Assembly: GCA_001896555.1 (NCBI GenBank)
Contig: MPOS01000002.1
Location: 77,371-141,370, forward strand
DNA: 64,000 bases
Origin: Candidatus Phosphitivorax anaerolimi
GTDB taxonomy: Bacteria; Desulfobacterota; Desulfomonilia; UBA1062
Reading direction: 5' to 3'
Shown: one piece after another, positions 17,236 through 33,946 of the stretch
Position numbering within the stretch: position 1 is the first letter of the stretch
Layout of the letters: each line of letters opens with the position of its first letter
Position numbers and translations under genes: made by a program
Notes under the pieces: model-generated
Database searches by the model: none
The model's input: only the letters and a program-made list of their open reading frames with translations
What the model was told of the DNA's origin: nothing

Positions 17236-18090
17236 TCAGCCCCGTTTCATGGCCATGAAGCTCCCCATGGGTACGTCCACCTCCTGTGAGACGACCGGGC
17301 ACTTGACCATGAAGAGGTGGAAAACCTCCCTGCCGGGTGCATCGAGGGTTTCGAAGTTGCCCTGCCCCTTGGATATGACCAGGTCCGCGGCCGCGAAGCA
17401 CTCCAGAAACTCCTCGCTGCACAAGGAAAGCGGTGTTCCCGGGGCCTCGGAGCCGCTCGGGATGACCCTGCATAGCCTGTCGAGCCCGGCCTGGGCCGCA
17501 TCGGTCAGGGTGGCGTCGTTGATGACGGGAGCCGACCTGACCGCGCAGGTGACCCTATCCGGCCCGATATGCTCGATGAATATCCGGTCGAGAACGATCT
17601 CGCCGGCGTTGTCGGCGACGTAGAGGACGCGCTCCGCCTTTCTAAGCCGCTCGATGAGCTCAGGGATGTCGTTGACGGCAAACGATGAGTCCAGGGCGTT
17701 CATGATCGTGTCTTCTACTGCGATTTCCTCGCAGCCGTGTGCGCCAAGCCCGAAATCGATGATGTTGCCGGCTACCGCCATGCGTAGAGCAGCCTCCAGC
17801 ATATCGGGCCTGGATGCAATGATCCGCCTCAGCCGCGGCGCCAGAGACAGGGCCTGCTCGTTGGAGTGCCTCTTCTTTTCTCCGTAGGGATCGCCCTTGC
17901 CGTCCATGTCTCTGTAGATCCGGTAGATCTCCCGGGTGAACAGGGGCGGCGGAGCGTCACAGTCGAAACGGGCTAGGCCTTCGAGGACCCGGCGCATGAA
18001 AGGCTCCCGCTTATGCGGGGCGAGATACTCCCGGGCCAGCCCGGCCGCCTGCTTTGTCAGGCAGGCTATGCATTCGACCTGGGTGCGCAT
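17236..18090 (-). CDS. DUF89 family protein (ARMT1-like damage-control phosphatase family)
   Basis: Length and N-terminal ECIACL-containing region are consistent with DUF89. Co-operonic with the upstream mrp (3-nt gap). Confidence 0.5.
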   Translation of the reverse strand: MRTQVECIACLTKQAAGLAREYLAPHKREPFMRRVLEGLARFDCDAPPPLFTREIYRIYRDMDGKGDPYGEKKRHSNEQALSLAPRLRRIIASRPDMLEAALRMAVAGNIIDFGLGAHGCEEIAVEDTIMNALDSSFAVNDIPELIERLRKAERVLYVADNAGEIVLDRIFIEHIGPDRVTCAVRSAPVINDATLTDAAQAGLDRLCRVIPSGSEAPGTPLSLCSEEFLECFAAADLVISKGQGNFETLDAPGREVFHLFMVKCPVVSQEVDVPMGSFMAMKRG

Positions 18091-18093
18091 CTT

Positions 18094-18957
18094 TCAACGT
18101 GAAACGATCTGCTCGAGTATTTTCGAGACGATCTTTGCAAACGCCTTGCCCGCTTCCGTATCACCCGATGACGCCACGAACGGCCTGCCCTCATCGGTGT
18201 CGCGAACGATACCCGGATCTATGGGGACCGCGCCCAGGAACGGCACGCCCAGGTCCTCGGACGCCTTCCTGCCGCCGCCCGTCTTGAAGAGGTCGATGCT
18301 CTTGCCGCAGTGCGGGCAGGCAAAGCCGCTCATGTTCTCGATGATGCCGAGAGGTTTGAGCTCGAGTGCCCTGGCGAACTCCACACTCTTGCGCGAGTCC
18401 AGAAGCGCCACGTCCTGCGGGGTGGTGACGATCACCGCATAGGGCGTCTCCACTCCCTCGACGCCCTTGGTGAGCTGCGCGATGGAAAGCGGCTCGTCGC
18501 CCGTGCCCGGAGGCAGATCAACCACGAGGAAATCGAGGTCGCCCCAGTTCACGTCCTTCAGAAACTGTCTCATGACCGTATGTTTCATGGGGCCGCGCCA
18601 GATCACCGGCGTGTCAGGGCTGTCCAGCAGGTACCCCACAGAGACCACCTTGATGCCGCCGATGGCCTCCACGGGCAGGATATTGCCTTTTTCGTCGCCC
18701 ATGAGTCTCATGTTTTCCACTCCCAGGACCTTGGGGATGTCGGGCCCGTGAATGTCGCCGTCGAGCACACCCACCCGGTAGCCCTCACGTGCCAGGCTGA
18801 GGGCCAGGTTTGCCGTCACCGTGGACTTGCCTACCCCGCCCTTGCCGCTCATGACCATGATGGTATGCCTGATCCGGGAAAGCTGCTTCTTCAGTTTTTT
18901 CTGCTGATTCTCCTGTATCTGTATTATCTTGCTGTTATCGATATCTGTCATCCTCAT
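18094..18957 (-). CDS. Mrp/NBP35/ApbC-family P-loop ATPase (Fe-S cluster carrier)
   Basis: Deviant Walker [11 protein letters not shown] and CPHCG cysteine motif. Confidence 0.85.
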
Positions 18958-19213
18958 CTCCTGATACTTAAAAAAGGTGGATGTTACCTATCACATAGTT
19001 CAGCCCACGACAATGGCTCAAGGGTTTTACTGTCTTCCTATTTTTCATGTGGTATTTGCAGCACTTCAAGCGCGTCTCTCCTTTGTTGGAAAAGACTTCA
19101 CATCCCTGCCTTCGAAGCCGTCGTGCGCCATCCCTATGAAATGCTCACTTAAAGATCATAGGTTATCAGCTTGTCTGGACATTGTCGGGAACAATCCGAT
19201 CAAGCCCCATATT

Positions 19214-19229
19214 ATGTTATATATAACAT
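19214..19229. promoter_or_regulatory. perfect 16-bp palindrome ATGTTATATATAACAT (Zur/Fur-family-like operator candidate)
   Basis: Exact inverted repeat inside a roughly 170-bp AT-rich island in the divergent mrp/fmdE intergenic region. Its half-sites match the gamma-proteobacterial Zur box half-sites ATGTTATA/TATAACAT, but here they are abutted without the central N. Confidence 0.5.
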
Positions 19230-19255
19230 AAATAATACTTGCACAAGCTGTTGTT

Positions 19256-19271
19256 ATGTTATAGTTAACAT
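19256..19271. promoter_or_regulatory. second, imperfect copy of the same palindrome (ATGTTATAGTTAACAT)
   Basis: 14/16 symmetric positions. Its centre lies 42 bp (about 4 helical turns) from the first site. It overlaps the putative -10 region downstream of a TTGCAC -35 (19239-19244), about 55 nt before the fmdE-like start. Confidence 0.45.
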
Positions 19272-19326
19272 ATAAAATGAATGTATGGGCTCTCGGGCTC
19301 ATGAATAGATTTGAAAGGATATAGAC

Positions 19327-19881
19327 ATGGCATCCATCGTTGATTACGACACTCTTCTGGACGAGTGCATCACGTTTCACGGGCATCTCTGCATGGGGCA
19401 GGTTCTGGGAGTGCGGGTAGCATCAAAAGGCCTGGAGCTTGTCTCGCCTGATTTACCGCGGGATCTGATCGTTGCTGTGGAGATAGACCGCTGCCTGGCG
19501 GACGCTGTGCTCACGGTCACGGGCACGAGGATAGGGCGGCGCAGCCTCAAGCTGTATAATTACGGCCGCATGGCGGCATCGTTTCTGAACTGCACAACCG
19601 GAAAGGCATACCGGGTAAGGGCTGCCTACCAGGGGCCCCAGCCTGGGGACGACGAGAAGGCCATGAGGTCGATCCTTGTGCTCCCGGATGAAGAGATCGT
19701 CGCCTGGGAAGAGATCGAGCTCGTATTCCCTGAAAGCGAAATGCCCGGGAGACCAAAGAGAACCGTCCTCTGCAGCATCTGCGGCGAGAAGATCTTCGAC
19801 GGCAAGGACAGGCCGGGGCCCGATGGCCCTGCTTGCGCCGCATGCCTCGACGGCAGGTACTATACGGTCAAGAAGAGCTGA
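19327..19881 (+). CDS. FmdE-family protein (formylmethanofuran dehydrogenase subunit E-like domain with C-terminal Cys4 zinc ribbon)
   Basis: FHGHLCMG motif typical of the FmdE domain; C-terminal CSICGEK...CAAC zinc-ribbon. Confidence 0.6.
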   Translation: MASIVDYDTLLDECITFHGHLCMGQVLGVRVASKGLELVSPDLPRDLIVAVEIDRCLADAVLTVTGTRIGRRSLKLYNYGRMAASFLNCTTGKAYRVRAAYQGPQPGDDEKAMRSILVLPDEEIVAWEEIELVFPESEMPGRPKRTVLCSICGEKIFDGKDRPGPDGPACAACLDGRYYTVKKS

Positions 19882-19910
19882 AAATCGTAAAATTAGGGAG
19901 AGAGGTATCA

Positions 19911-20705
19911 ATGGGGCTGCATTTTGCCAGAAGGAAAGGATCGCCGTGGAGCCTGTTCGATCGGCTCATCGAGGGAATCCCGCAGGAGATCGAGGTCGAA
20001 GATTGTCTTGTCGGGCTCCACTGGATCATGGTCCGGTCGAAGGGTGTGGGGATTGCCATGACGCCGCCCGAGGGCTCCAGGCATATCGAGGGCGCGGGAA
20101 CATTCAGGGGCAGGAAGGTCAGGGATCTGGCCGGGCTCATGAGGTCGTGGAGCATCATGGAGGCGGCAATCGGCGCAGCCGCTGCCAACTCGTATTACAA
20201 TGCGCCCGAGGTGCTGGCGGAAACCTGGGATATCGACATCCACAACCAGCCTGAGCTCAATGCGTTCGAGTATTATCAGAAACGCCTTGAGGGAAAGAAG
20301 GTTGCAGTGAAAGGCCATTTTCCGGGGCTCGAAGGCCTCGCAGAGGCATGCGAGCTCTCGATCCTGGAGAGAAGGCCTCAGAAAGGTGATTTCCCCGATC
20401 CTGCCTGCGAATATCTCCTCCCCCGTCAGGATGCGGTCTTCATGACCGGGACCGCCCTCATCAACAAAACCATGCCCCGCCTCCTCGAACTCGCTGCCGG
20501 AGGGATGAGCGTGGTCGTCGGCCCCACCACGCCGATCACGCCTCTGCTCTTCGCCTTTGGTGCGACAGCGCTTGCAGGCTCTGTGGTCATCGATGAGAAG
20601 AACGCATGGCGCCACGTTGCAGAGGGCGGGGACAGGTCGATCTTCTCCCACGGGACCCGGATGATAAAGGCTGAGCCTGCCATGGCAAGGAGGAGCGGGC
20701 GATGA
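19911..20705 (+). CDS. DUF4213/DUF364 'putative heavy-metal chelation' family protein (paralogue 1)
   Basis: About 265 aa. N-terminal small domain plus C-terminal Rossmann-like domain ending ...GGDRS. The architecture and the fmdE/ABC-transporter context match the DUF4213+DUF364 family. The call is by pattern, not by search. Start chosen at the ATG after SD AGGGAGAGAGG. Confidence 0.5.
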   Translation: MGLHFARRKGSPWSLFDRLIEGIPQEIEVEDCLVGLHWIMVRSKGVGIAMTPPEGSRHIEGAGTFRGRKVRDLAGLMRSWSIMEAAIGAAAANSYYNAPEVLAETWDIDIHNQPELNAFEYYQKRLEGKKVAVKGHFPGLEGLAEACELSILERRPQKGDFPDPACEYLLPRQDAVFMTGTALINKTMPRLLELAAGGMSVVVGPTTPITPLLFAFGATALAGSVVIDEKNAWRHVAEGGDRSIFSHGTRMIKAEPAMARRSGR

Positions 20706-21541
20706 CTGTCCCGGGGTATGACCGCATGATCGATGCAATCGCCTCTTCGGCAGACCCGAGGCCGCGCATCGAGGACATCCGCATCTACACCAACTGGGTC
20801 CTGGTCAAGACGGGCAAGTGGTCGCTGTCCACGGTCTTTCGGGGCATGCCGGGCTTCGACGAGCACCCGGGCATGGACACCTGGATGGGGGGCTGGCTGG
20901 GAAGGCCCGGTCTCGAATCCGCCATGGAGCTCCTTTCGAGCAGGGAAACGCTCAAGCGCGCCGTGGGAATGGCCTGCCTAAAATCCCTGCTCCCGGAGCC
21001 CGAGCACGTGCTCTTCGGGAATGCCATCGACATGTTCGAGGCCGCATCGCCGCATGTGCCCATATGCTTCATCGGGCATTTCAAGGATGGCGCGGACTGG
21101 CGCAGCAGAGGCCGCCCGGTCTCCATCGTGGAGCTCTTTCCAAGGCCGGGAGACATCCACTGGGATGAGGCGGATGAAGTCCTTGAAAAGGCGCGGATCG
21201 TGCTCATGACAGGGCTCACCGTGGTAAACGAGACCCTTTCGGCAGTGGTGGCCCGCACGCCCTCGGCCCTCATCCGCGTGATCATGGGCCCGACCGTGCC
21301 GCCGAGCCGGGCGCTCTTCGACTTCGGCATCGACATGCTCGGCGTGACCCTGGTCGACGATGTCGAGGCCATGGTGGGATATGCGCGGCTGGGAGGGGGC
21401 AGCATCGCCTATTCTCCTCCGGGCGCCCTCCGGAAGATCAATATGGTGAGAAGCGCCGACGATATACGCCGGAGGCTTGCCTCCCTGCTGACGGACCAGT
21501 GGGAGATCACAGGGGAAAAGGAAGAACTGGCATGTGGCTGA
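20702..21541 (+). CDS. DUF4213/DUF364 'putative heavy-metal chelation' family protein (paralogue 2)
   Basis: Same architecture as the preceding gene (C-terminal ...LGGGSIAY). ATGA start/stop overlap with paralogue 1 suggests translational coupling. Confidence 0.5.
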   Translation: MTVPGYDRMIDAIASSADPRPRIEDIRIYTNWVLVKTGKWSLSTVFRGMPGFDEHPGMDTWMGGWLGRPGLESAMELLSSRETLKRAVGMACLKSLLPEPEHVLFGNAIDMFEAASPHVPICFIGHFKDGADWRSRGRPVSIVELFPRPGDIHWDEADEVLEKARIVLMTGLTVVNETLSAVVARTPSALIRVIMGPTVPPSRALFDFGIDMLGVTLVDDVEAMVGYARLGGGSIAYSPPGALRKINMVRSADDIRRRLASLLTDQWEITGEKEELACG

Positions 21542-22356
21542 ACGCAGTCGCCCAATGGCGCTCGAAACGGGTTGCCTGCGCCCTGGTGACGATCATCGAA
21601 TCGGCCGGGTCAACTCCCCGCAAGGCCGGATCGAAAATGGCGGTGAGCGCGTGCGGGAAAACCGCAGGCTCTGTTGGCGGAGGCGCAGTCGAGCTGAAAT
21701 GCATAGAGCTTGCGAAAGAAGCGATTGCCCGGGGGGCCTGCATCACCGGGCGCTTCGTTTCAAACGACCAGGGCAACGACTGGACGCTTGCGGAGCAGGA
21801 TAGGTTGCTTGGCCTGTGCGGCGGGACGCTCACGGTGTTCGTCGAGCCTCTGACGCCCGAGCCTGAGCTGGTGATCTTCGGCGGAGGCCACATAGGCATG
21901 CACCTGGGAAGGCTGTGCGAGGTCCTGGAAATGCCGTACCGCGTGTACGACGAGCGGAAAGACTTCGTTGACGAAAAGCGCTTCTCCGGTGCCAAGGCCC
22001 TCGTCTGCGCCCCGTTCGCCGAGATTTCAGCGCATGTCGAGCTGTCGGACAGGAGCTACTGCGTGGTCATGACCTACGGCCACGAGCACGACGAAGAGGT
22101 CCTGGAACAGCTCCTGAAAAACAGCGCGATCCCCTACATCGGCATGATCGGCAGCCCGAACAAGGCGGGCGTCCTGGTCCGGAACATCAGGCAGCGAGGC
22201 GGCGTCATCGACGATAGGCTCTACTGCCCCATCGGGCTTTGCATCGGCCGGAACCTCCCGCAGGAGATCGCCCTGTCGGTCATGGCCGAGGTCGTGCTGC
22301 TCGCAAGGGGAGGACGGTACGACCATATGCGGATCGACTGGACCGGGAAAACTTAA
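21532..22356 (+). CDS. XdhC/CoxI-family protein (molybdenum-cofactor insertion chaperone-like)
   Basis: XdhC_CoxI N-domain (TIIESAGSTPRKAGSKMAV...GSVGGGAVE) plus XdhC Rossmann domain (VIFGGGHIG). SD AAAAGGAAGAA upstream; 10-nt overlap with the preceding gene. Confidence 0.7.
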   Translation: MWLNAVAQWRSKRVACALVTIIESAGSTPRKAGSKMAVSACGKTAGSVGGGAVELKCIELAKEAIARGACITGRFVSNDQGNDWTLAEQDRLLGLCGGTLTVFVEPLTPEPELVIFGGGHIGMHLGRLCEVLEMPYRVYDERKDFVDEKRFSGAKALVCAPFAEISAHVELSDRSYCVVMTYGHEHDEEVLEQLLKNSAIPYIGMIGSPNKAGVLVRNIRQRGGVIDDRLYCPIGLCIGRNLPQEIALSVMAEVVLLARGGRYDHMRIDWTGKT

Positions 22357-22454
22357 AATCAGCGGCATGAACCCCGGGGCAAGCCGTTGACTTTGTTTTA
22401 TTACAAGCGGCGGGGGATAAGCCCAGGAGACATTCAAATCATGCGAGAGGAAAT

Positions 22455-24485
22455 GTGAATATGAAGAGGGGATTGGGCATCAGGTGCATTTGCGGACTGG
22501 TTGTGCTTTTCCTGGCCTTCTCCGGTGCGGCGGCTGCCCGGGAGGCGGGCGGAGAAGCGAAAAAAGGCGATGCGAACGTCTTTAAGCTCGGAGAGGTGGA
22601 AGTCAGCGGAAAAAAAGAAGCGGTAAAGAACGTGACCGTGGACAAGGTCTCGTCGGAAGAGATGAGGCTCTTCAATGCAGACAACGTTGCCGAGGCCGCG
22701 GGCAGGCTCCCCGGGGTGAACATGTCCGCTTTCGGTGTAAGGAACGAGCGGATGGTATACGTGAGGGGCTTCGATCTCAAGCACGCGCCGATCTTCCTGG
22801 ACGGCATCCCCATCTATGTCCCCTATGACGGATACCCGGACCTCGGCAGGTTCACCACCTCCGATTTGTCGGAGATCGTGGTTTCCAAGGGGTTCACGTC
22901 CGTACTCTACGGGCCGAACACCATGGGAGGCGCGATCAACATGGTGTCGCGGAGACCGGAAAAGACCTTTGAAGGCGATGCGGGCGCCGGCTACGGCACC
23001 GGGGGGACCTACAGGGCACACCTCAATCTCGGGACGAATCAGGGAAGGTGGTATGTCCAGGCAGGCGGGTCATACATCGACAGCGATTATTTCCCGCTTT
23101 CCGACAGCTTCGACCCCACGCCTGCGGAAGACGGTAAGCGCAGAGAAAACTCCTATTATAAGGACGAGAGCGCAAACATAAAAATCGGCTTCACTCCCAA
23201 TGCCGAAGACGAGTATGCCTTGAGCTACATTCGCCAGCACGGCGTGAAGGGCTCGCCGCCGTATGCCGGGACAGACACTTCCCAGACTGCCCGTTACTGG
23301 CAGTGGCCCTACTGGAACAAGGAGAGCGTGTACTTCACCTCCAGGACGGAATTTCAAGCCCCCTTCTACCTGAAAACAGGCGCTTTCTATGACAGGTTCT
23401 GGAATTCCCTCCTGAGCTTCGACGATGCTACATACTCCACCATTACCCGGAAATACGCATTCAGGAGCGACTACAACGACCATACCTTCGGCGGTTCCGT
23501 CGAGGTCGGGACGGAAGCGGTCCGGTCCAACCTGATCAAGCTCTCTCTCAGGTACAAGAACGACATCCACAAGGAGTGGAACGAGGGAAAACCCATCCAG
23601 ACCTTCCAGGACTGCACCCTTTCCGCCGGTCTGGAAGATACGGTCACTATTTCCGAAGAGCTGTATGTCATTGCCGGAGCGAGCTATGACATGGCGGATA
23701 CCGTGGAGGCGGAAGACCTGGACGGCTCGAATCAGAGGGTCGATTTCGAGATGGAAAGAACAGCTGCGTTCAACCCCCAGCTCGGCATATTCTATACCCT
23801 CCCCGGCAAGGGAGTGATCCATGCCGCGATATCGAGAAAGACCCGCATACCTTCCATCAAGGACAAGTTCTCCTACAGGCTGGGCACCGCGATCCCCAAC
23901 CCCGGTCTCGATCCGGAGAAGTCGATCAACTATGAGATCGGATATCAGAACACCTTCTTCGGCAGGTTCTTCTTCAAGACCACGGTCTTCCACAACAACA
24001 TCACCGACTACATTCTCCAGGCAACGGTGCCCGATCCCTCGAACCCCGGGAGCACGACCCTGCAGAACCAGAACATCGGGAAGGTATCCCAGTACGGGGC
24101 CGAGGTGGAAGTATCGGGGGCACTGCTCGATGTCCTCGAAGGAGGCCTCACCTACGCCTATATCCACCAGAACAACAGAACGAATTCCAACAAGCTGACA
24201 AACGTCCCCGCGGCCAAGGCGGGAGGCTACCTCAAGTGCTCTCCCGCACACTTTGTGAGCGGGCTCGTGGACGTGCAGTACGTTTCAAAGATGTACAGCT
24301 CGTCGAACGGCGTGCGGGAGGCCGGGGACTTCACTGTCGTGAATGCGAAGCTCATGTGCGAGCCGGTGAAAGGAATCACGGCTGAAGCAGGGCTCGACAA
24401 TGTGTTCGACAGGAACTACGCTCTGGATGAGGGATTTCCCGAGCCGGGCAGGACCATGTTCGCAAATATCGGCTACAGGTTCTAG
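22455..24485 (+). CDS. TonB-dependent outer-membrane receptor
   Basis: Signal peptide, plug-domain motifs and a C-terminal beta-barrel ending in the terminal aromatic ...IGYRF. Confidence 0.85.
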   Translation: MNMKRGLGIRCICGLVVLFLAFSGAAAAREAGGEAKKGDANVFKLGEVEVSGKKEAVKNVTVDKVSSEEMRLFNADNVAEAAGRLPGVNMSAFGVRNERMVYVRGFDLKHAPIFLDGIPIYVPYDGYPDLGRFTTSDLSEIVVSKGFTSVLYGPNTMGGAINMVSRRPEKTFEGDAGAGYGTGGTYRAHLNLGTNQGRWYVQAGGSYIDSDYFPLSDSFDPTPAEDGKRRENSYYKDESANIKIGFTPNAEDEYALSYIRQHGVKGSPPYAGTDTSQTARYWQWPYWNKESVYFTSRTEFQAPFYLKTGAFYDRFWNSLLSFDDATYSTITRKYAFRSDYNDHTFGGSVEVGTEAVRSNLIKLSLRYKNDIHKEWNEGKPIQTFQDCTLSAGLEDTVTISEELYVIAGASYDMADTVEAEDLDGSNQRVDFEMERTAAFNPQLGIFYTLPGKGVIHAAISRKTRIPSIKDKFSYRLGTAIPNPGLDPEKSINYEIGYQNTFFGRFFFKTTVFHNNITDYILQATVPDPSNPGSTTLQNQNIGKVSQYGAEVEVSGALLDVLEGGLTYAYIHQNNRTNSNKLTNVPAAKAGGYLKCSPAHFVSGLVDVQYVSKMYSSSNGVREAGDFTVVNAKLMCEPVKGITAEAGLDNVFDRNYALDEGFPEPGRTMFANIGYRF

Positions 24486-24494
24486 GGGCTTGGA

Positions 24495-25565
24495 ATGCGG
24501 CGGAGCTCCCGGTATCGCGTCGCGGCATATACGCTGCCCATCCTGGTCATGACCTTCCTCTTTCCGGTCCTGGCAGGCATGTCGCCTGCCTCGGCCGGGG
24601 AGATCACTGACATGACCGGCAGGAAAGTCGTCGTGCCTGACACAATCAACCGGGTGTTCGCCGTATCCCCACCGGGCACCTATCTGCTCTATGCCCTCGA
24701 CCCATCCGTCATCATCGGCCTGAACTTCCCTCTGTGGGAGAGCGAGAAGCGGTATACGGCGAAAAGCTACCAGACCCTGCCGGTCATCGGCGGCATGGTG
24801 GGCCAGGGAAGGAACATCAATCAGGAGGTGCTCCTGGCGGCAAAGCCCGATGTAATCGTCATCTGGGCAGGCAGAGTCTCCGCTGTGACGAGAAACTACG
24901 AAGAGATGTTTGCGAGGATGAAGATCCCCTGGTTCAACGTTTGCCTCGATACCATAGATGATTACCCTGAAGCGATCCTGTTTGTGGGCAGGCTCCTGGG
25001 CAGGAAAGAGCGGGCCGCAGAGCTCCATGGCTATGCCGTGTGTTCGCTGAACCAGGTGAAAACTTCTGTTGCCGGGATACCCGAGGCTTCACGGCCAAAA
25101 GTGTATTATGCACAGGGCATGGACGGCCTCTGCACCGATCCTGCCGGCTCCATGCATACCGAGCTGATCGAGTTCTGCGGCGGCGTCAACGTCCACAGGA
25201 AGCAGTCGCGCGACAATTACGGCTACGGCATGGACAAGGTGACTTTGGAACAGGTCATGCTCTATGACCCGGACGCCATTCTCATCAAGGAAAAGGCCTT
25301 TTACGCCGAGGTGTTCTCAGACCCGCGGTGGAGAAGGATCAAAGCCGTGCGGGAGAAAAGATGCTTCCTGATCCCGCATGGCCCGTTCAACTGGTTCGAC
25401 CGGCCGCCCTCGTTCATGCGGCTCCTGGGCGCCAAGTGGCTCATGTCGATCCTCCATCCCGAACGCTTCCCCATCGACATGATGGGCGAGACGAAGCTCT
25501 TCTACCGGCTCTTCCTGGGAGTCGACCTGAGCGACAAAGAGGCAAAGGAGCTTCTCGGAGAGTGA
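24495..25565 (+). CDS. periplasmic substrate-binding protein, class III (FecB/BtuF/FhuD-like) of an ABC importer
   Basis: Signal peptide, about 350 aa. The two-lobe helical-backbone family pattern is typical of siderophore, heme or cobalamin binders. Confidence 0.75.
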   Translation: MRRSSRYRVAAYTLPILVMTFLFPVLAGMSPASAGEITDMTGRKVVVPDTINRVFAVSPPGTYLLYALDPSVIIGLNFPLWESEKRYTAKSYQTLPVIGGMVGQGRNINQEVLLAAKPDVIVIWAGRVSAVTRNYEEMFARMKIPWFNVCLDTIDDYPEAILFVGRLLGRKERAAELHGYAVCSLNQVKTSVAGIPEASRPKVYYAQGMDGLCTDPAGSMHTELIEFCGGVNVHRKQSRDNYGYGMDKVTLEQVMLYDPDAILIKEKAFYAEVFSDPRWRRIKAVREKRCFLIPHGPFNWFDRPPSFMRLLGAKWLMSILHPERFPIDMMGETKLFYRLFLGVDLSDKEAKELLGE

Positions 25566-26572
25566 AGCCTTCGATCCTCATAATCCTTTGCGCCGTGCTT
25601 GGTCTTATGTGCTGCCTCTCGCTCACCCTCGGCAAATATCCGGTCGGTATAGGCGACATGGCTGCATTCTTCCTGTACAAAACAGCCGGCGCGGGGCCGA
25701 TGGGGGTGGCGGATGCCGAGCTCATGGAGAACCTGCTCTTCGACATCAGGCTTCCCCGCATCCTCGCCGCCATGCTGATCGGAGCCGCTCTTTCCACATC
25801 GGGGGCGTCGTTCCAGGCGCTGTTCACCAACCCGCTCGTGTCTCCGAAGATGCTGGGCGTGCTTTCCGGCGCGTCCTTCGGCGCGGTATCGGCAATGCTC
25901 TTTACCAGGAGCTGGTTCGTGGTGCAGGCCTCTGCAGCGGCCTTCGGCTTCATCGCGGTAGGCGCTGCGATCGGGATAGCCCGGCTGTACCGGACGGATT
26001 CGATCATCATGCTGGTCCTGGGAGGCATCATCAGCGAGGCCCTGTTTACCTCCCTGATCTCCATCGTCAAATACGTTGCCGACCCCTACGACGATCTGCC
26101 CGCCATCACCTACTGGCTCATGGGAAACCTCTCGTTCGTGAATTTAAGGACTGTCACCATCGCCGGTGTCCCGATCCTTGCGGGCGTCTTCGCGCTCATG
26201 CTGTACGGAAAGCATTTGAATGTTCTTTCCCTGGGCGATGAAGAGGCGCACAGCCTGGGCGTCAACATACGGGTCATCCGCTATGGCATCATCTTTTTTG
26301 CCACGCTCGCAAGCACCCTGACCGTGGTCATCGGCGGCATGGTGGGCTGGGTGGGCCTCATCATACCTCACGTGGCCAGGATGCTCGTAGGCCCCAACAA
26401 TATCATCCTCCTTCCCGCCTCGGCGCTCCTGGGGGCAATCTATCTGCTGCTCGCCGACGGTCTTTCCCGGCTGCTGTTCAGCTTCGAGATACCAATCGGC
26501 ATCGTGACCTCGCTCTTCGGCATCCCCTTTTTCCTGTACATCCTGAGGAATGCGAAGAAGGGGTGGAGCTGA
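25562..26572 (+). CDS. FecCD-family ABC permease
   Basis: Polytopic membrane protein with FecCD/BtuC-type conserved glycine-rich segments. GTG start overlaps the stop of the binding-protein gene. Confidence 0.8.
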   Translation: MKPSILIILCAVLGLMCCLSLTLGKYPVGIGDMAAFFLYKTAGAGPMGVADAELMENLLFDIRLPRILAAMLIGAALSTSGASFQALFTNPLVSPKMLGVLSGASFGAVSAMLFTRSWFVVQASAAAFGFIAVGAAIGIARLYRTDSIIMLVLGGIISEALFTSLISIVKYVADPYDDLPAITYWLMGNLSFVNLRTVTIAGVPILAGVFALMLYGKHLNVLSLGDEEAHSLGVNIRVIRYGIIFFATLASTLTVVIGGMVGWVGLIIPHVARMLVGPNNIILLPASALLGAIYLLLADGLSRLLFSFEIPIGIVTSLFGIPFFLYILRNAKKGWS

Positions 26573-26575
26573 ATC

Positions 26576-27472
26576 ATGTTCATCCGAGTCGAGAACATCA
26601 GTTTTTCATACGGGAAAAAGGAAGTGCTCGACGATGTCTCCCTCTCTTTTCGCCGAGGCGAGGTGGTATCCCTGCTCGGACCGAACGGAAGCGGCAAGAC
26701 GACCCTCCTGAAGGTTCTCCTGGGAATCCTCAAGCCTTCAAGGGGCAGGGTCCTGTTCGAAGGTGCTCCGATCGTTGCGATCGGCGCGAAACGGTTCGCC
26801 CGGAGGGTAGCCTATGTGCCGCAGCTGCATCACGGCGCGTTTTCCTACTCTGTCCTGGACGTCGTGCTCATGGGGCGCATGCCGTACAAGAATTTTTTTT
26901 CGCGGTTCACCCGCCGCGACAACGAGATAGCCGAATCCATGCTCGAAAAGCTGGGGATCGTCCACCTCAAGCACAAGCCGTATACGGAGATCAGCGGCGG
27001 CGAGCGCCAGCTCACCCTCATCGCGCGCGCACTGGCACAGGGGGCCGACACCTTCATCATGGACGAGCCCATAACCGGCCTGGACTACGGGAATCAGATC
27101 AGGCTCCTGGAGCAGATCATGGTTCTTTCGGCAGAGGGGCATACCGTCATCAAGTCGACGCACTTTCCCGACCATGCCCTGTGGGTGTCCGACCGCGCGG
27201 TGCTTATGAAGGACGGGACCGTGGCGGCGGACGGCACTGCATCCGGGGAGATCACGGCGGGCAACCTGGGCAAACTCTACAACATCCCGGTGCGGGTCAT
27301 GGACGCCGGCAACGGATTCAGCGTCTGCATCCCCTCTTCGAAGAAATGGGAGTGCACATGCCGGGACAGGAAGAACGGGCCTGCACATCACAAACACGAC
27401 TGCTTCCGCAAAGAAGGGGGAGAGACGAGAGCAGGCAAGACCGCCTGCAGCGGTGAGGGAAAGAAGGAGTAA
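26576..27472 (+). CDS. ABC transporter ATP-binding protein (FepC/BtuD-type) with Cys/His-rich C-terminal extension
   Basis: Walker [10 protein letters not shown], signature SGGERQ, Walker B FIMDEP. It has an extra tail of about 45 aa containing 5 Cys and 3 His ([26 protein letters not shown]...C). Confidence 0.85.
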
Positions 27473-27477
27473 CCGTT

Positions 27478-27912
27478 GTGGAATGGCTGAAGATCGTGAT
27501 CGACTACGGGATTGTCGGGCTGCTCCTCGTCATGAGCGTTATGGCGCTGGCCGTCGCCCTGGAGAGGTACCTGTTCTATCGCAGCGTCAAGATCGATGAG
27601 TTCACGGACAGGAAGACCCTGGAGCTCGAGCTCACCGGGAAGCTCCACCTCATCGCCACCATAGGCAGCAATGCGCCGTACATCGGGCTGCTCGGCACCG
27701 TGCTCGGGATCATGCTCACGTTCTACACCATGGGCAGCGCCGGCTTCATGGATACGGGAAAGATCATGATCGGACTCGCTCTGGCGCTCAAGGTGACTGC
27801 CGTGGGACTTCTCGTGGCCATACCGTCGGTAGCCTGCTACAACCTTCTCCTGAGGAAGGCGAAGGTGCTCATCCTTCAGTGGGAGATCAAGCATGGAAGA
27901 CAAGGGCTTTGA
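27478..27912 (+). CDS. exbB: MotA/TolQ/ExbB-family proton-channel protein (short form)
   Basis: Two to three TM helices with the conserved TolQ/ExbB C-terminal helix pattern. GTG start; followed by exbD with overlap. Confidence 0.6.
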
Positions 27913-28273
27913 TTACATCAATGTCATTCCGCTGGTGGATGTGATGCTCGTGCTGCTCACCATCGTGCTCACGACCTCGACCTTTGTGGCCACGGGCTCG
28001 ATGCCGGTGGAACTCCCCAGGGCAAGAGAGGTCCACGGAGATGCCCTGAAGACCCTGACCGTGGAAATAGATGCCTCGGGACGGATCTTCATGAACGCAG
28101 CGCCGGTATCTCTCGAAGGAATGAGGGCAATGATGAGCCCGCTCGAAAGGTCGCTTCCCGTCCAGATACGGGCGGACAGGGCCATCGCCCTCCAGGTGTT
28201 CGTGGATGTGCTGGAAATCATTCAGACTCTTGGATTCACGAGGGTGAATCTCCAGCTCGAGCTCAAGAAATGA
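27893..28273 (+). CDS. exbD: ExbD/TolR-family biopolymer transport protein
   Basis: Single N-terminal TM ([14 protein letters not shown]) plus a periplasmic domain; length 126 aa. Confidence 0.75.
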
Positions 28274-28992
28274 GCCGGCAGGCGAGGGCAATCATCCTAT
28301 CCCTCTTCCTCCATGCCGTGGCCGTCGCATCGGTTTGGGCCATGAGCTGCTCTTTCAATTCTCTCTCCCAGCCTGTAACCATTGACCTGAGCCTCCTTGA
28401 TGCCGGAGGTCTCCTTGCCGGGAACGGATTGCCGGCAGACAGGCATGCCGGGGGTCCCTGCCTGAAGCCGCCGGAGAAGGCCTTCAAAAAGAAAAAGCCG
28501 GTCGAGAATGACGTGCATGAACCGATTATTCCTCTGGCAGAAACGCGGAATCCGGCGCCTGACGCGCTCTCGGATACAGGGGCAATAGAGCCCCTTGCAT
28601 CTTCGGACCCGGATATTCAGGCCACCGGCGGAACAGCCGCTGTTGACAGAGCGGAATCTCCTTCCGGGAGCGGTTCCTCCTCCATGCCTGGAGGGGCTCA
28701 AAGAGACGGCCATGCACTATACACGGCGGAGCAGTTCAATTATATCAAGGAGATGATCCGTAAGAACCTCGTTTATCCTCACATGGCCAGGAAGCTCGGC
28801 GTGGAGGGCAGCGTGGTCCTGGCTTTCATCGTCCTGCCCGACGGCGGGGTGAAGGATGTTCGGGTTACGATCAGCAGCGGCAGCAGCATTCTTGACAGCA
28901 ATGCCGTCACTACGGTCAGGAAGACGGCGCCTTTCCCCAGACCGCCCGTAGAGGCAGAGATCATCATTCCCGTTGTGTACAGACTGAAATAG
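28270..28992 (+). CDS. tonB: TonB-family energy transducer
   Basis: N-terminal TM anchor, Pro/Ala-rich linker and TonB C-terminal domain (GSVVLAFIVLPDGGVKDVRV). ATGA overlap with exbD. Confidence 0.7.
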   Translation: MSRQARAIILSLFLHAVAVASVWAMSCSFNSLSQPVTIDLSLLDAGGLLAGNGLPADRHAGGPCLKPPEKAFKKKKPVENDVHEPIIPLAETRNPAPDALSDTGAIEPLASSDPDIQATGGTAAVDRAESPSGSGSSSMPGGAQRDGHALYTAEQFNYIKEMIRKNLVYPHMARKLGVEGSVVLAFIVLPDGGVKDVRVTISSGSSILDSNAVTTVRKTAPFPRPPVEAEIIIPVVYRLK

Positions 28993-29006
28993 TTCCGGTA
29001 ACAAGA

Positions 29007-29894
29007 ATGTCTGAAAGAGATGATATGAAAAACAGAAGGGATGGGCAGCCGAATATGGACAGGATGCCGGATTGGCCCCTGCTCTGGAAGCAGCTAGCAG
29101 AGATCCAGGCCAGGGGCATGAATAAAAAACGGAGCAGCAAGCCCGAAGATGCGTGGGCGAACCGGGCGCGCACCTTCGGCGACAGCATCAAGAAACGATG
29201 GGAAAAAGAGGATTCCAGCAGGAGATTCCTGCTCGATCTGCTGAAGACCAATCCCGGATCCACCGTGCTCGACATCGGCGCCGGAACAGGTTCCTGGGCC
29301 TGCCTGCTTTCCCCGTACGCGGCCAAGGTCACCGCCCTCGAGCCCTCGCCCGCAATGATCGCACTCATGGAGGAGAACATCAGGGGGCTCGGGATCACGA
29401 ATGTGGAGATCGTCGAGGGCTCATGGCCCGGCGCCCAAGTCCAGGACCATGACTTCACACTGTGCTCGCATGCCATGTATGAATGCACCGATTTCCCCGC
29501 CTTTGTGCGGCGCATGAACGACGTCTCAAGACGCTGCTGCCTTCTCCTCATGCGTGCGGCTGTTCCCGACGGCGTCATGGCCGAAGTCGCCCGGGAGGTC
29601 TGGGGGCAGCCGCATGACAGCCCCAATTTCCTCATCGGCTACAACATCCTTTTCCAGATGGGCATTTTTGCAAACGTGCTCATCGAGGACACCGGCCTCT
29701 GGAAGCCCTGGACCAATACCGATCTGGATGAGGCCCTGGCCGACGTGAAGCGCAGGCTCGGATTGGCCGGAGATGATCGTCACGACGGCCCCATTGAGAA
29801 AATACTGATCGACAGGCTTACCTGGAAGGATGGAAGGCTCGTCTGGCCGCCCGGTGTCCGCTCGGCCTTGGTGTATTGGTACAAGCAGACATGA
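29007..29894 (+). CDS. class I SAM-dependent methyltransferase
   Basis: Motif I VLDIGAGTG. Last gene of the co-directional block. Confidence 0.65.
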   Translation: MSERDDMKNRRDGQPNMDRMPDWPLLWKQLAEIQARGMNKKRSSKPEDAWANRARTFGDSIKKRWEKEDSSRRFLLDLLKTNPGSTVLDIGAGTGSWACLLSPYAAKVTALEPSPAMIALMEENIRGLGITNVEIVEGSWPGAQVQDHDFTLCSHAMYECTDFPAFVRRMNDVSRRCCLLLMRAAVPDGVMAEVAREVWGQPHDSPNFLIGYNILFQMGIFANVLIEDTGLWKPWTNTDLDEALADVKRRLGLAGDDRHDGPIEKILIDRLTWKDGRLVWPPGVRSALVYWYKQT

Positions 29895-30013
29895 AGGCTC
29901 CCCGGCACCTGCACGGCTTCTTCATTGGCAGGCAGATAAAAAATGCGCGCACTGCCCCGGAAGACCGGATCATCGTCATCCGGATCCTGTGACCGGTTAC
30001 GGCAGGGGCGCTG

Positions 30014-31969
30014 TCAAATCATCCGGGCAATGGATGCGCCATCGAAGGTTGCGTTGATGATTTTCCGGGGTTCTTTGCAATCCCCGATGACATACGTCTC
30101 CCGGGCACAATCGCGGGCAGCCTCCATCATGACGTCCGCCGGGCGCGAACCCAGGGCAATCACGACGTTGTCCGCCTCGAGAAGCGACTTGTTTCCCCAG
30201 CGGTCCAGCACCACCACGCCCTGGTCCGTGATCTCAGCAATGACTCGGCTGAGAAGGGCCTTGATCCCTGCCTGAGGCATCAGCTCGGTCAGAAAGTCGT
30301 ACCGGGTAATGGGTTCCATGTCGGAGGCGAGATTGTCCAGCATCTCTACGATCGTGACATCCTTTCCCTGTTCGGCCAGAAACAGGGCTGTTTCGCACCC
30401 GACCAGACCGCCGCCCGCCACCACGACCTTTTTGCCGGGTACCTGTGCCGAGGCGTTGAGCACATCCCAGCTCCCTCTCACCTTCTCGGAGTTGTCAATA
30501 CCTTTGATGTCAGGGACAAGGGGCACAGCACCGGTCGCAAAAATGACCACATCGGGCTTTTCCCTCTCGATGGTGTTCGCATCTACCGGCGTGTTCATCT
30601 CCATCCGGACCCCGGCTGCCTTCAGCGTGTGTGAATAATATTCAGGAATAAAGCTCAGCTTGCCCTTGCCCGGCCCCTTGACGGCCGTGCGCACCTGGCC
30701 GCCCAGCTCGCCGCTTTTTTCGTAGAGGGTCACTTCGTGCCCCCTGAGGGCGGCCACCCGCGCGGCCTCCATGCCGCCCGGACCGGCGCCCACGACCATC
30801 ACCTTTTTCCTCTTCTTCGCCGGGATCAGGTTCACCCATCCTTCAAACCGCTCGTGGCCTGTCACCGGGTTTACCGTGCACCTCATGTAGAGGTCGTTGA
30901 ACACATGCCCCCCGATGCAGCCGATATTGCAGCTGATACATTTTCGGATCTCGGGCACCCTTCCTTCCTCGACCTTCCGGGGCCAGTGAGGGTCGGCGAT
31001 GAGCGTTCTGCCCAGTGCCACAAAATCTGCCATGCCCTCCTCGAGGACCCTCTCGGCCACTTCAGGGCTCCGGATCTGTCCGACCGTGATGACCGGGATC
31101 TTCACCACCTTCTTGATTGCCGCAGCCAGATACGCCCTCCACCCCTCCTCGAAGCGCATGGGCTCGAGGATCCGCTGCATGGATTCATAGATGCCCGCAC
31201 TCACATGCAGGACATCGATGCCTGCATCCTCCAGATATTGAGCGATCTTTTTTGCATCGTCCAGCGTGATCCCTCCGGGCACGAACTCATCCGCGCTGAA
31301 CCGGAACGACAGGGGGAAACGGGGGCCTACCTTCTCGCGCGTGCGCTCGATAATCTTCAAGGGAAACCGCATGCGCCGCTCAAAGGTTCCTCCCCACTCG
31401 TCTACCCTCTGATTGGTGTGCGGAGACATGAACTCATTGATGAGATACCCATGGGCGCCGTGAAACTCTACACCGTCCATCCCGGCCATCTTGGCCCTGA
31501 GCGCGGTCTCTGAGAAGCGCTCCACCAGGTCCTGGGTCTCTTCCGGCTTGAGCGCCCGCACGGGCTGCTGGAGAAAGCCGTCGGGTATACCTGATGGATC
31601 GACGCCCTCTTCGCCCTCGATGTCGTGGTACTGCCGCCCCGCATGGTGGATCTGGATGAAAATCTTCGCCTGGTGAGCATGCACCGCCTCGGCCAGCTCC
31701 TGGAATCCTGGAATGTACTTGTTCTTATCCAGTCTGAGCTGGCACGCCACATTCTTTCCCTGAGGGTACTTCACCTGGACGTTCTCGACAATGATCAGCC
31801 CGGCGCCGCCTTTCGCCCGCTCCGCATAGTATCCGATCAGACGTTCGGTCGGCTCTCCTGAGGGGCCGGCATAGTTCGTAGCCATGGGCGGCATGACAAT
31901 TCGGTTCTTCACTGTCATACTCCCGATCCTTCCCTCTTCGAACAGCCGGTAATACGGCGTACACGGCAT
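30014..31969 (-). CDS. NADH:flavin oxidoreductase (Old-Yellow-Enzyme TIM barrel fused to FAD/NAD(P)-binding domain; 2-enoate/2,4-dienoyl-CoA reductase-like)
   Basis: OYE N-terminal motifs (MPPMATN, IQIHHAGRQ), 4Fe-4S Cys cluster and a C-terminal GAGPGG dinucleotide fold. Confidence 0.8.
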   Translation of the reverse strand: MPCTPYYRLFEEGRIGSMTVKNRIVMPPMATNYAGPSGEPTERLIGYYAERAKGGAGLIIVENVQVKYPQGKNVACQLRLDKNKYIPGFQELAEAVHAHQAKIFIQIHHAGRQYHDIEGEEGVDPSGIPDGFLQQPVRALKPEETQDLVERFSETALRAKMAGMDGVEFHGAHGYLINEFMSPHTNQRVDEWGGTFERRMRFPLKIIERTREKVGPRFPLSFRFSADEFVPGGITLDDAKKIAQYLEDAGIDVLHVSAGIYESMQRILEPMRFEEGWRAYLAAAIKKVVKIPVITVGQIRSPEVAERVLEEGMADFVALGRTLIADPHWPRKVEEGRVPEIRKCISCNIGCIGGHVFNDLYMRCTVNPVTGHERFEGWVNLIPAKKRKKVMVVGAGPGGMEAARVAALRGHEVTLYEKSGELGGQVRTAVKGPGKGKLSFIPEYYSHTLKAAGVRMEMNTPVDANTIEREKPDVVIFATGAVPLVPDIKGIDNSEKVRGSWDVLNASAQVPGKKVVVAGGGLVGCETALFLAEQGKDVTIVEMLDNLASDMEPITRYDFLTELMPQAGIKALLSRVIAEITDQGVVVLDRWGNKSLLEADNVVIALGSRPADVMMEAARDCARETYVIGDCKEPRKIINATFDGASIARMI

Positions 31970-32368: not shown

Positions 32369-33946
32369 TTATTGCAAACCGCCGGATCGGTCCGTTCTCA
32401 CCACCTTTGCCGTGGGCCGTATCTTGCCCAGGGCCCGGTAGGCGTAAGCCCTCACATACCATGACGGGTCGTGGAGAAAGGACTGTTCGAGGAGATCGCC
32501 CGCCTTATCGGATGGCATGTCGCCGAGCGCCCGGCACGCCCGTGTCCGGACGTTAAGCTGAGGATCAAACAGGGCCTCTTCGACAACGTCCAGATAGCGG
32601 GCATCCTTTCTCATGCCTGCCTCGTGGATCGCCCGGAGCCTGATGCGCGGGCTGATGTCCCGCGCAAATCTGTTCAGCTCACCCGGTGTGAACTCATCAG
32701 GAAAGGTCAGGAGCGCGATGTAGCGCATCTCCTCGTGCTCGGACAGGATATACTCAGCGATCTTTTCCGGATGCAGGATGAGCTTGTGGCGCTGGTATAC
32801 GCTTTTCCACGCCGGGTAAAAGAGCGAGAGGTACAAGGCAAAGAGCACGCCTGCCGCAATCTTCGACCTCAGGGAAAGGTTTGTGAGAAAGAGCGCAAAC
32901 CAGAGCATGAACAGAACCGGGATGAGCACCAGGGGCCCGCGATAGAAAAAGAGGCCGATGCCATGGCGCAGCATCCTGTTCTTGTCAAAGGCGATTCCGG
33001 TTTCCGCCTCCTTCATGATACGGTTCGACACATTGGCGGGCCGGTCGTCCCGGAGGATGACCGAGGTGCAGGAGAGCTTCTCCTTGCTCACCGCCAGGTC
33101 GCGGAAGGCAAGGCCGCAAGGGTCAGGGGTACGCACCCACAGACTTCCGTGCGGCATGGGGCCGATGGCGCGTATCTCGTCCGAGACCGCGATCACCTTC
33201 TGCTCCAGGGCCGATACCGGCTTGATCACGTGTGCGGCAAGCAGGGTGTGATCGTAGTAGAAGTCCGATATGTTCCTCATGACCGGGAGTGTGAGCATGG
33301 AATCTCTGATGACCTCGAACGAGGCATTGCCCAGCACGAGCATGAACAGAAACGGGGCCGAAACAGAAGCGGCCAGGGCAAACCACCGCCTGAACCTGAT
33401 CTCTCGGGGCCTGCTTCTCCGGATGATCAGGGCCCAGGGCACGAAAAACGCCGCCGGGCTCAAAAAACCGAAAACAACCGAGAGCACCGGTTCCTCGGCG
33501 CTGTAGCCCAGCCAGGTGCACAGAGCGCCCAGGGCAAGAAAGGCAGCGATATCGGGCCACGAGTACCGGCTTTTACGCCAGGGGAAGAAGGACAGTACCA
33601 TTGCCGCCAGGGCGTTCAACACACCCAGCGTACACCCGAAGAACAGGGCGCTCGAAAACCTGTGGCTGAAATGTGTCAGAAATGGATCATCAGGTTTGAC
33701 CAGGGGCTCCATGCCGGATGAGATGAAAAACTGCATCTGCGAGGAGAGATGTTGTGCATGCCGGCTTACCAGGATGAACCCGAACAAGGTGATCAGAACG
33801 ATGCTGCACAGCGTGCCGGCAAAGGACGCGCGGAACCACTGAGTGTAATCGCGGTACCCGGACAGGCCGAACACCCTTACCCCTGCACTGACAGCATCCG
33901 GCAACGGGGTTGCGTTGTCTATGAGCTGTCCTGAAGCGTTATACAA
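32369..33946 (-). CDS. polytopic membrane protein with C-terminal HEAT (PBS-lyase-like) repeats, function unknown
   Basis: Multiple hydrophobic helices in the first 400 aa or so. The C-terminus has repeated ...VRxxAxxALGxI HEAT-like units. Confidence 0.5.
   Translation of the reverse strand: MYNASGQLIDNATPLPDAVSAGVRVFGLSGYRDYTQWFRASFAGTLCSIVLITLFGFILVSRHAQHLSSQMQFFISSGMEPLVKPDDPFLTHFSHRFSSALFFGCTLGVLNALAAMVLSFFPWRKSRYSWPDIAAFLALGALCTWLGYSAEEPVLSVVFGFLSPAAFFVPWALIIRRSRPREIRFRRWFALAASVSAPFLFMLVLGNASFEVIRDSMLTLPVMRNISDFYYDHTLLAAHVIKPVSALEQKVIAVSDEIRAIGPMPHGSLWVRTPDPCGLAFRDLAVSKEKLSCTSVILRDDRPANVSNRIMKEAETGIAFDKNRMLRHGIGLFFYRGPLVLIPVLFMLWFALFLTNLSLRSKIAAGVLFALYLSLFYPAWKSVYQRHKLILHPEKIAEYILSEHEEMRYIALLTFPDEFTPGELNRFARDISPRIRLRAIHEAGMRKDARYLDVVEEALFDPQLNVRTRACRALGDMPSDKAGDLLEQSFLHDPSWYVRAYAYRALGKIRPTAKVVRTDRSGGLQ

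Follow-up and report, generated by a model that had tools for sequence, protein, structure and literature searches.

The known routes of molybdenum and tungsten (Mo/W) uptake are inner-membrane ATP-binding cassette (ABC) transporters for the free oxyanion, among them ModABC, TupABC, and WtpABC. Here we describe a plus-strand operon in a 64,000-nucleotide stretch of the Candidatus Phosphitivorax anaerolimi genome (contig MPOS01000002.1, positions 77,371 to 141,370; called the window below and numbered from its first nucleotide) that combines a TonB-dependent outer-membrane receptor, an ABC importer, an ExbB-ExbD-TonB set, and several cytoplasmic proteins. The system most likely carries molybdenum or tungsten, and not iron or vitamin B12, from the outer membrane to the cytoplasm, and it is probably a Mo/W-repressed, TonB-energized importer resembling MolBC-A that is served by cytoplasmic Mo/W-handling accessory proteins.

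MolBC-A of Haemophilus influenzae (HI1470/HI1471/HI1472) has the same FecCD-type permease, ATPase, and class III binding protein. Its binding protein, called MolA, has molybdate and tungstate as ligands and is part of a type II importer, and transcription of molB is repressed by molybdate (PMC4031551), which is the direction of control that we propose for the window operon. Unlike MolBC-A, the window operon adds a TonB-dependent receptor, ExbB-ExbD-TonB, FmdE, DUF364, XdhC, and a methyltransferase, and whereas MolBC-A has been described as low-affinity, a TonB-dependent system implies that the substrate is scavenged when very dilute. The ModE regulon and ModABC of Escherichia coli and Geobacter sulfurreducens share with the window the operator core and, in relatives of the window operon, the full CGnTATATA-N6-TATATAnCG palindrome; in many of these relatives, regulators of the ModE family and modAB genes also adjoin the operon. 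In contrast to ModABC, a type I importer with a class II binding protein, the window encodes a receptor-dependent type II importer, and the CG flanks are missing from its own boxes. Among the ModE sites predicted for G. sulfurreducens, there is no cluster of this operon kind.

A receptor, a class III binding protein, a type II ABC importer, and a TonB complex likewise make up the BtuB-BtuFCD and TonB-ExbBD systems of E. coli. The window differs from them in lacking a B12 riboswitch, in holding transport genes and energizer in one operon, and in its putative ModE-type control. YiuR-YiuABC and similar metal-chelate loci also pair a receptor with a class III binding protein and a FecCD importer, and YiuA falls in the same structural neighborhood as the window binding protein. 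Loci of that type are iron- and Fur-controlled, whereas the window locus has no Fur box and a Mo/W context. Among the accessory proteins, DUF364 has been linked to Mo uptake genes before, in the modABC operon of Methanococcus maripaludis, an operon that is cofit with nifH (bioRxiv 10.1101/2024.03.05.583561); the window differs by its two DUF364 copies and XdhC. The first DUF364 enzyme to be characterized, Orf5, is a methyl-S-adenosylmethionine (methyl-SAM) to methylazetidine carboxylate cyclase of a natural-product pathway (PMC12930334). It is a member of the family to which the window DUF364 proteins belong, and the use of a SAM derivative by this only characterized member fits an operon rich in SAM-using enzymes. 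The structure papers on DUF364 (PMC2954201) and FmdE (PMC2954224) noted only "metal transporter" neighbors.

The architecture of the window system is classical, and what sets it apart is its probable Mo/W control and context together with the embedded FmdE and methyltransferase. We found no description of a TonB-dependent Mo/W importer or of this operon in a literature search that excluded subscription-only papers and regulon databases, so a prior description is possible. The same search gave nothing relevant for TunR or for FmdE with TonB and tungsten, and incidental mentions only of DVU238x.

A 12-gene operon encoding a probable import system

The first-pass annotation had described eight genes at 22455-29894 as one import system. 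All eight plus-strand open reading frames (ORFs) are there with the domains it had assigned, as judged with Pfam for domains and NCBIfam model cutoffs for equivalog tests (Rfam was used for RNA elements). They begin with the TonB-dependent outer-membrane receptor (22455-24485; Plug PF07715, 69.3 bits against a cutoff of 23.9, and TonB_dep_Rec PF00593, 113.7 bits against 27), whose start may be the ATG at 22461 instead of the GTG at 22455. It is followed by the periplasmic class III substrate-binding protein, which has a signal peptide (24495-25565; Peripla_BP_2 PF01497, 41.9 bits), and by the FecCD-type permease (25562-26572; FecCD PF01032, 268 bits), whose start codon in the junction sequence is GTG, not ATG. 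With the ABC transporter ATPase (26576-27472; ABC_tran PF00005, 110 bits), these genes encode a complete type II ABC importer set. The energizer is complete as well, with all three domains detected in overlapping genes: a short ExbB of the exbB2 type (27478-27912; MotA_ExbB, 94 bits, and TIGR02805, 166.7 against a cutoff of 135.35), ExbD (27893-28273; PF02472, 80.4 bits), and TonB (28270-28992; TonB_C PF03544, 66 bits), the last with an N-terminal membrane anchor visible in its sequence. A cytoplasmic class I SAM-dependent methyltransferase closes the series (29007-29894; Methyltransf_25/11/23/31, with PF13649 at 42.9 bits).

The junctions bear out the claim that the genes form a single, tightly coupled transport unit. 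Reading of the sequence confirms the overlaps at 25562-25565 (GTGA), 27893-27912 (20 nucleotides [nt], ExbB/ExbD), and 28270-28273 (ATGA). The gaps of 3 to 5 nt that had been given for the remaining junctions hold at 26573-26575 (3 nt) and 27473-27477 (5 nt), but those between receptor and binding protein (9 nt) and between TonB and methyltransferase (14 nt) are wider.

Together, they make up the transport half, or rear two-thirds, of a 12-gene operon at 19327-29894. Its four leading genes, which overlap one another on the strand of the receptor, encode a cytoplasmic FmdE-family protein with conserved FHGxxC and DRC motifs and a C-terminal CxxC...CxxC zinc ribbon (19327-19881; PF02663, 88 bits); two DUF4213+DUF364 proteins assigned by Pfam (19833-20705, with a true start probably downstream, near 19911, and 20702-21541); and an XdhC-family Mo/W-cofactor insertion chaperone (21499-22356; XdhC_CoxI and XdhC_C). 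The top NCBIfam match of the last is an XdhC-related aldehyde oxidoreductase maturation factor, at 200 bits and below the cutoff of 350. The tie between the receptor/ABC genes and this upstream module, already suspected, is upheld: the 98-nt spacer between XdhC and the receptor (22357-22454) contains no promoter-like and no terminator-like match, and the closest relative, a metagenomic locus with 74 to 88% protein identity (L003), keeps the order FmdE-DUF364-receptor-binding protein-permease-ATPase-ExbB-ExbD-TonB-methyltransferase.

The receptor itself reaches the cutoff of no NCBIfam equivalog and has no close solved structure. Its N terminus is hydrophobic and ends in AAAA-RE, and a candidate TonB box, approximately FKLGEVEVSG, was picked out by eye only. 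The idea of a selenocysteine in the receptor was dropped, the "U-motif" receptor families of NCBIfam scoring far below cutoff. In one metagenome-assembled genome (L075:6295-8431), the receptor is split into three ORFs in three different frames, which reflects frameshifts or assembly errors and not an in-frame TGA for selenocysteine.

ModE-box-like operators upstream of the operon

Two palindromes that the first-pass annotation had not seen (19212-19273) lie within the 370 bp upstream of FmdE. Operator 1, TTATGTTATATATAACATAA (19212-19231), fits the ModE-box core TTATRT-N8-AYATAA with no mismatch, though without the CG flanks found in relatives, and is kept in L003. Operator 2, TTATGTTATAGTTAACATAT (19254-19273), has one mismatch; it lies 42 bp from operator 1 and overlaps a sigma-70-like promoter, TTGTTA-16-TAAAAT (19251-19278, plus strand), which is a consensus match only and the sole plus-strand match in 18800-30200. 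The core pattern is matched twice in the window against 0.03 matches expected, both times at most 115 bp upstream of FmdE. When the spacer is aligned with that of L003, both palindromes stand out as conserved islands in otherwise diverged sequence, and their 42-bp spacing is identical.

To place these operators in a family-wide context, we drew on 1117 matches to the binding-protein family (E ≤ 1e-10) and a pattern scan of species-representative genomes with at least 570 confirmed loci. Analysis of 80 of these, together with loci from homologue look-ups, gave 82 nonredundant related loci. An unbiased count of 6+6 palindromes in their intergenic DNA was topped by TTATAT-N8-ATATAA and TTATGT-N8-ACATAA. 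The pattern TTATRT-N8-AYATAA has 22 exact and 62 one-mismatch sites in these loci, against 1 and 13 in reversed-sequence controls, and most boxes stand 30 to 300 bp upstream of the gene for the receptor or for FmdE, with tandem pairs being frequent. The four flanking bases, which stand outside the search pattern, are C, G, C, and G in 49, 45, 42, and 47 of 62 cases, so that the full site in relatives is CGTTATRT-N8-AYATAACG. By its sequence, this site is the published ModE box, whose consensus is ATCGNTATATA-N6-TATATANCGAT (PMC545781) and which has also been given as ATCGCTATATANNNNNNTATATAACGAT (PMC2700814). Two relatives (L061 and L082) have sites, GCGTTATGTTAAAAATAACATAACGA, that combine the window-type core with the CG flanks and so link the two forms, and L076 has the same box in front of a bona fide modABC operon as well as in front of an ExbB-ExbD-TonB-FmdE cluster.

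The operon family and its genomic neighbors

The operon family is widespread in strict anaerobes. Dozens of genomes carry the same set of genes, and the arrangement in the window is not due to chance. FecCD and the ATPase each occur in 66 of the 82 related loci, FmdE in 61, the methyltransferase in 56, the receptor in 51, and TonB in 47, with ExbB and ExbD in about 20 (19 and 21, respectively). FmdE and the methyltransferase are thus core members of the family, and the suspicion that the methyltransferase is more than an accidental neighbor was justified. By the same counts, the first-pass annotation went too far in calling a dedicated ExbB-ExbD-TonB set unusual; such sets are common in other receptor/ABC loci as well. 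The commonest gene order, with overlapping junctions, is receptor-FmdE-methyltransferase-binding protein-permease-ATPase-(ExbB-ExbD)-TonB. FmdE and the methyltransferase therefore normally stand in mid-operon, and the window has a rearranged version with FmdE first and the methyltransferase last.

Clustering all neighboring ORFs and annotating representatives brought out further members. Genes tied to Mo/W recur: ModE-type regulators in 19 of the 82 loci (HTH_1 plus two TOBE domains in Pfam, or the helix-turn-helix [HTH] part only), ModA/ModB in 12, and MoeA and XdhC in 8 each. In 35 loci there is at least one of these, and 51 have one of these or the box. Other recurrent clusters are DUF364 (38 loci), a second receptor type (31), a second, short methyltransferase (30 to 35), small Oxidored_molyb-domain proteins (27), and a radical SAM enzyme (11).

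The binding protein

A profile of the binding-protein family, which is marked by the motifs YYAxGxDG (also given as YYAEGxDG) and PFNWFDRPPSFMR, was compared with the PDB. It matched a protein of Sulfurospirillum deleyianum (4PAG; E, 7e-99), a binding protein of Veillonella parvula (4OVK; 2e-36), and then MolA (HI_1472; 3PSA/3PSH; 2e-27), the nearest relative with a characterized ligand. Weaker matches were YiuA (1e-14), IsdE (1e-12), BtuF (about 1e-10), and FhuD/FeuA (about 1e-5). The AlphaFold model of the window protein (predicted local distance difference test [pLDDT] score, 85.5) matches class III binding proteins in the same order by Foldseek, with MolA in fourth place (template modeling [TM] scores, 0.68/0.74; 23% identity).

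The methyltransferase and its partners

The methyltransferase has a Rossmann-type fold and a SAM motif I, VLDIGAGTG, that is conserved across its family. It reaches the cutoff of no NCBIfam equivalog, and a fold search with its model (pLDDT, 88.8) returned generic small-molecule methyltransferases only (TM, 0.4 to 0.5) and no clue to the substrate. Its genomic company is more telling. We looked up homologues of the window subfamily (50 to 77% identity) at six places. The homologue in L086 (75% identity) lies beside DUF364-XdhC in a cluster of moaA, MOSC, modABC, a Mop (TOBE) gene, XdhC, DUF364, the methyltransferase, moaE, and two moeA genes. L089 and L090 share Metallophos, FecCD, ATPase, radical SAM, uncharacterized, binding-protein, NTPase, and methyltransferase genes, with a ModE-like HTH gene in L089 only and two moeA genes in L090. 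In L091, which also has a xanthine-dehydrogenase-type enzyme and a formate dehydrogenase, FmdE and the methyltransferase stand between fdhD and another formate dehydrogenase, and in L088, an Anaerolineae contig, the methyltransferase, FecCD, ATPase, and a binding-protein fusion adjoin a TupA-like ABC system. The sixth site, in Holophaga (L087), was uninformative. Since the methyltransferase, FmdE, DUF364, and XdhC accompany Mo/W cofactor genes even where there is no receptor, they probably act on the metal or cofactor side and not in transport itself. The methyltransferase could possibly act on the chelate or on a cofactor precursor.

Two of these loci have features of their own. The formate dehydrogenase-like genes of L091 (4493-6541 and 8979-11702) are each called as two adjacent ORFs, which would fit a putative in-frame selenocysteine TGA. 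The lipoprotein (LAGC lipobox) that serves as binding protein in L088 (6304-7839, plus strand) has a fused Oxidored_molyb-like domain at its N terminus; stand-alone cytoplasmic proteins with this domain have about 160 amino acids (aa) and the motif PMICGSGEPKG. The fusion was considered and rejected as a sign of pterin-cofactor import, the fused domain lacking the conserved Cys of the small cytoplasmic proteins.

Which substrate is imported

Of the substrate, the first-pass annotation had said only that it should be specialized. The specialized character stands, and the choice narrows to Mo/W by way of the ModE-box-like operators, the ModE, ModAB, MoeA, and XdhC neighbors, the likeness to MolA, and the contexts of the methyltransferase. 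Several points weigh against this reading. The window boxes match the inner 12 positions only, without the outer CG dinucleotides of canonical ModE boxes, and by hand count they have 8 mismatches in 16 positions to the strict E. coli ModE consensus, so another regulator could bind them. A tblastn search found no ModE, modABC, or moeA gene within the window; a ModE-family regulator may be encoded elsewhere in the genome. The box is present in 36 of the 82 related loci and not in all, and neither do all of them have a Mo/W gene. Both binding-protein motifs are common to the family and 4PAG but absent from MolA, so the ligand may differ from the free oxyanion, and other structural neighbors bind iron-catecholate fragments (YiuA) or nickel-histidine (CeuE). 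Some neighbors point to other metals: the Desulfobulbus locus L004 continues into a nickel/cobalt DUF4198-CbiM-CbiQ-ABC (CbiMQO-type) transporter, CobW-like GTPases (CobW/HypB/UreG type) occur in four loci, and in Pelobacter propionicus (CP000482) a Fes-type PF00756 esterase lies between two binding-protein paralogues (L001:11252-12823). Free oxyanions normally cross porins, and we know of no characterized TonB-dependent receptor for molybdate or tungstate. Finally, both Mo/W import and its control are predictions from genomic comparison.

The strongest competitor, although unlikely, is generic uptake of a ferric chelate (siderophore or heme), with the methyltransferase and FmdE as unrelated passengers. 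Homologues of the binding protein bear the Joint Genome Institute (JGI) name "iron complex transport system substrate-binding protein," its structural neighbors include YiuA, CeuE, HtsA, and heme binders, the Fes-type esterase of L001 stands beside its paralogues, and the best NCBIfam subfamily matches of the receptor are siderophore/heme receptor models. Yet the receptor scores far below the cutoffs of such models (TIGR01783, 144.6 against 223.5; another, 132 against 317), and no Fur box within five mismatches is present at 18940-19340 or 22340-22470, the operators resembling ModE boxes instead. In addition, most relatives keep the supposed passengers within the operon, where they lie between the receptor and binding-protein genes, and the neighbors are Mo/W genes and not iron genes.

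Uptake of another soft metal that is scarce in sulfidic habitats (nickel, cobalt, or zinc, free or chelated) is quite improbable. The transporter into which L004 runs, the four CobW-like GTPases, and the Helicobacter pylori CeuE, a nickel-histidine binder among the structural neighbors, would fit it, but such neighbors are rare compared with Mo/W neighbors, and the operon has upstream neither a NikR nor a Zur box of the delta-proteobacterial types (consensus sequences in PMC545781). A 16-bp palindrome, ATGTTATATATAACAT, did resemble a Zur box at first sight; it does not match the published delta-proteobacterial Zur consensus, and after the family-wide motif count that impression gave way to the 20-bp ModE-core match into which the palindrome extends and which L061 and L082 tie to the CG-flanked ModE boxes.

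It is very hard to believe that the operon imports a corrinoid (vitamin B12 or a precursor) in the manner of BtuB-BtuFCD and remodels it with a CbiT-like methyltransferase: the permease and ATPase do score best against BtuC and corrinoid ATPase models, and the methyltransferase weakly matches CbiT and CpaM models, but the scores for BtuB (73.6 against 836), BtuF (37.6 against 234), and CbiT (41.6 against 78.3) are all far below cutoff, BtuF is a far weaker match than MolA to the binding protein, the gene clusters that recur in the 82 loci include none for cobalamin biosynthesis, and, as had been argued earlier against a standard btuB-type locus, there is no cobalamin riboswitch (by Rfam, the whole window has no match at the gathering threshold, 18800-22600 has none at E ≤ 1, and eight related loci have no riboswitch).

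Proposed mechanism

In the Mo/W import mechanism that we infer, from the regulator and the direction of control to the substrate and every cytoplasmic step, the operon would be read from the promoter at about 19251-19278, which the two ModE-box-like operators bracket or overlap. With Mo/W plentiful, the operators would be occupied by a ModE-family repressor whose gene lies elsewhere in the genome; with Mo/W scarce, the operon would be expressed. The receptor would then take up a Mo/W species at the cell surface into the periplasm, powered by the operon's own ExbB-ExbD-TonB, and the binding protein, a distant MolA relative, would pass this species on to the type II importer formed by FecCD and ATPase. 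On the cytoplasmic side, FmdE, both DUF364 proteins, XdhC, and the SAM methyltransferase would take the metal or process its carrier and deliver the metal to the Mo/W cofactor pathway. The need for a receptor could possibly lie in scavenging at picomolar levels or in the import of a complexed form (thiometallate, metallophore, or pterin-bound metal). Carrying the second option further, we tentatively suggest an undescribed fourth route of Mo/W uptake, in which metal complexed as thiometallate, with a foreign or self-made metallophore, or with a pterin might enter by TonB-dependent import, and cytoplasmic FmdE and methyltransferase, with DUF364/XdhC, might release or convert it for cofactor synthesis.

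Many relatives have two receptor/methyltransferase pairs side by side (L010, L017, L024, L063, and L070). One pair is receptor-FmdE-methyltransferase; the other joins a receptor type of about 695 aa, with a Plug match only, to a short UbiE-like methyltransferase of about 211 aa and is followed by DUF364-FmdE-binding protein-permease-ATPase-ExbBD-TonB. From these gene orders, each type of receptor goes with a methyltransferase type of its own. This pairing and the Fes-type esterase beside binding-protein paralogues are a hint, though no proof, of chelate processing.

Variant loci and flanking genes

The esterase of L001 belongs to a family, PF00756, that includes enterobactin esterases; two receptors and two DUF364 genes lie close to it, as do radical SAM genes and a ModA-like protein. 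Five binding-protein paralogues lie within 21 kb in Syntrophorhabdus aromaticivorans (L043); the same stretch has MoeA, a CobW-type GTPase, and two receptors that represent a third type. A recurrent submodule places FecCD/ATPase and the methyltransferase with a radical SAM protein of about 335 aa, a protein of about 375 aa without a Pfam match, a binding protein, NTPase_1, and a Metallophos phosphoesterase (L089:1119-8858, L090:6739-14705, and L001:6661-11038); it is also found in genomes without the receptor.

In the window, genes for an Mrp/NBP35-type iron-sulfur carrier and an ARMT1/DUF89 damage-control phosphatase (17236-18957, minus strand) diverge from the FmdE operon and have a common control region with it. 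The Mrp-like gene was considered as a gene of the MrpORP orange-protein complex and rejected; MrpORP is its best NCBIfam match, at 358 bits and below the cutoff of 450. Two other minus-strand genes flank the locus without an evident link to it, one for a 1151-aa protein with a weak alpha-amylase catalytic-domain match (13592-17047) and one for a 525-aa HEAT-repeat protein (32369-33946). Elsewhere, the window consists of ordinary chromosomal DNA, with type II secretion genes, EF-G, ribosomal protein S2, and guaA among its contents. The encoded GMP synthase is 82% identical to that of a metagenome-assembled genome labeled Desulfomonilia, which makes the source organism a relative of that group.

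Implications

Enzymes that depend on Mo/W, such as formate dehydrogenases, aldehyde oxidoreductases, benzoyl-CoA reductases, and nitrate and polysulfide reductases, drive much of the anaerobic cycling of carbon, nitrogen, and sulfur, and both metals are scarce in the sulfidic sediments that these organisms inhabit. If our reading of the operon is true, it would change how Mo/W limitation is modeled in anoxic habitats. It would also account for the "iron complex transporter" annotations that exist by the hundreds in Desulfobacterota, Nitrospirota, Syntrophia, and Geobacter relatives. Finally, it would give FmdE, the Mo-linked DUF364 proteins, and this methyltransferase family first, testable roles.

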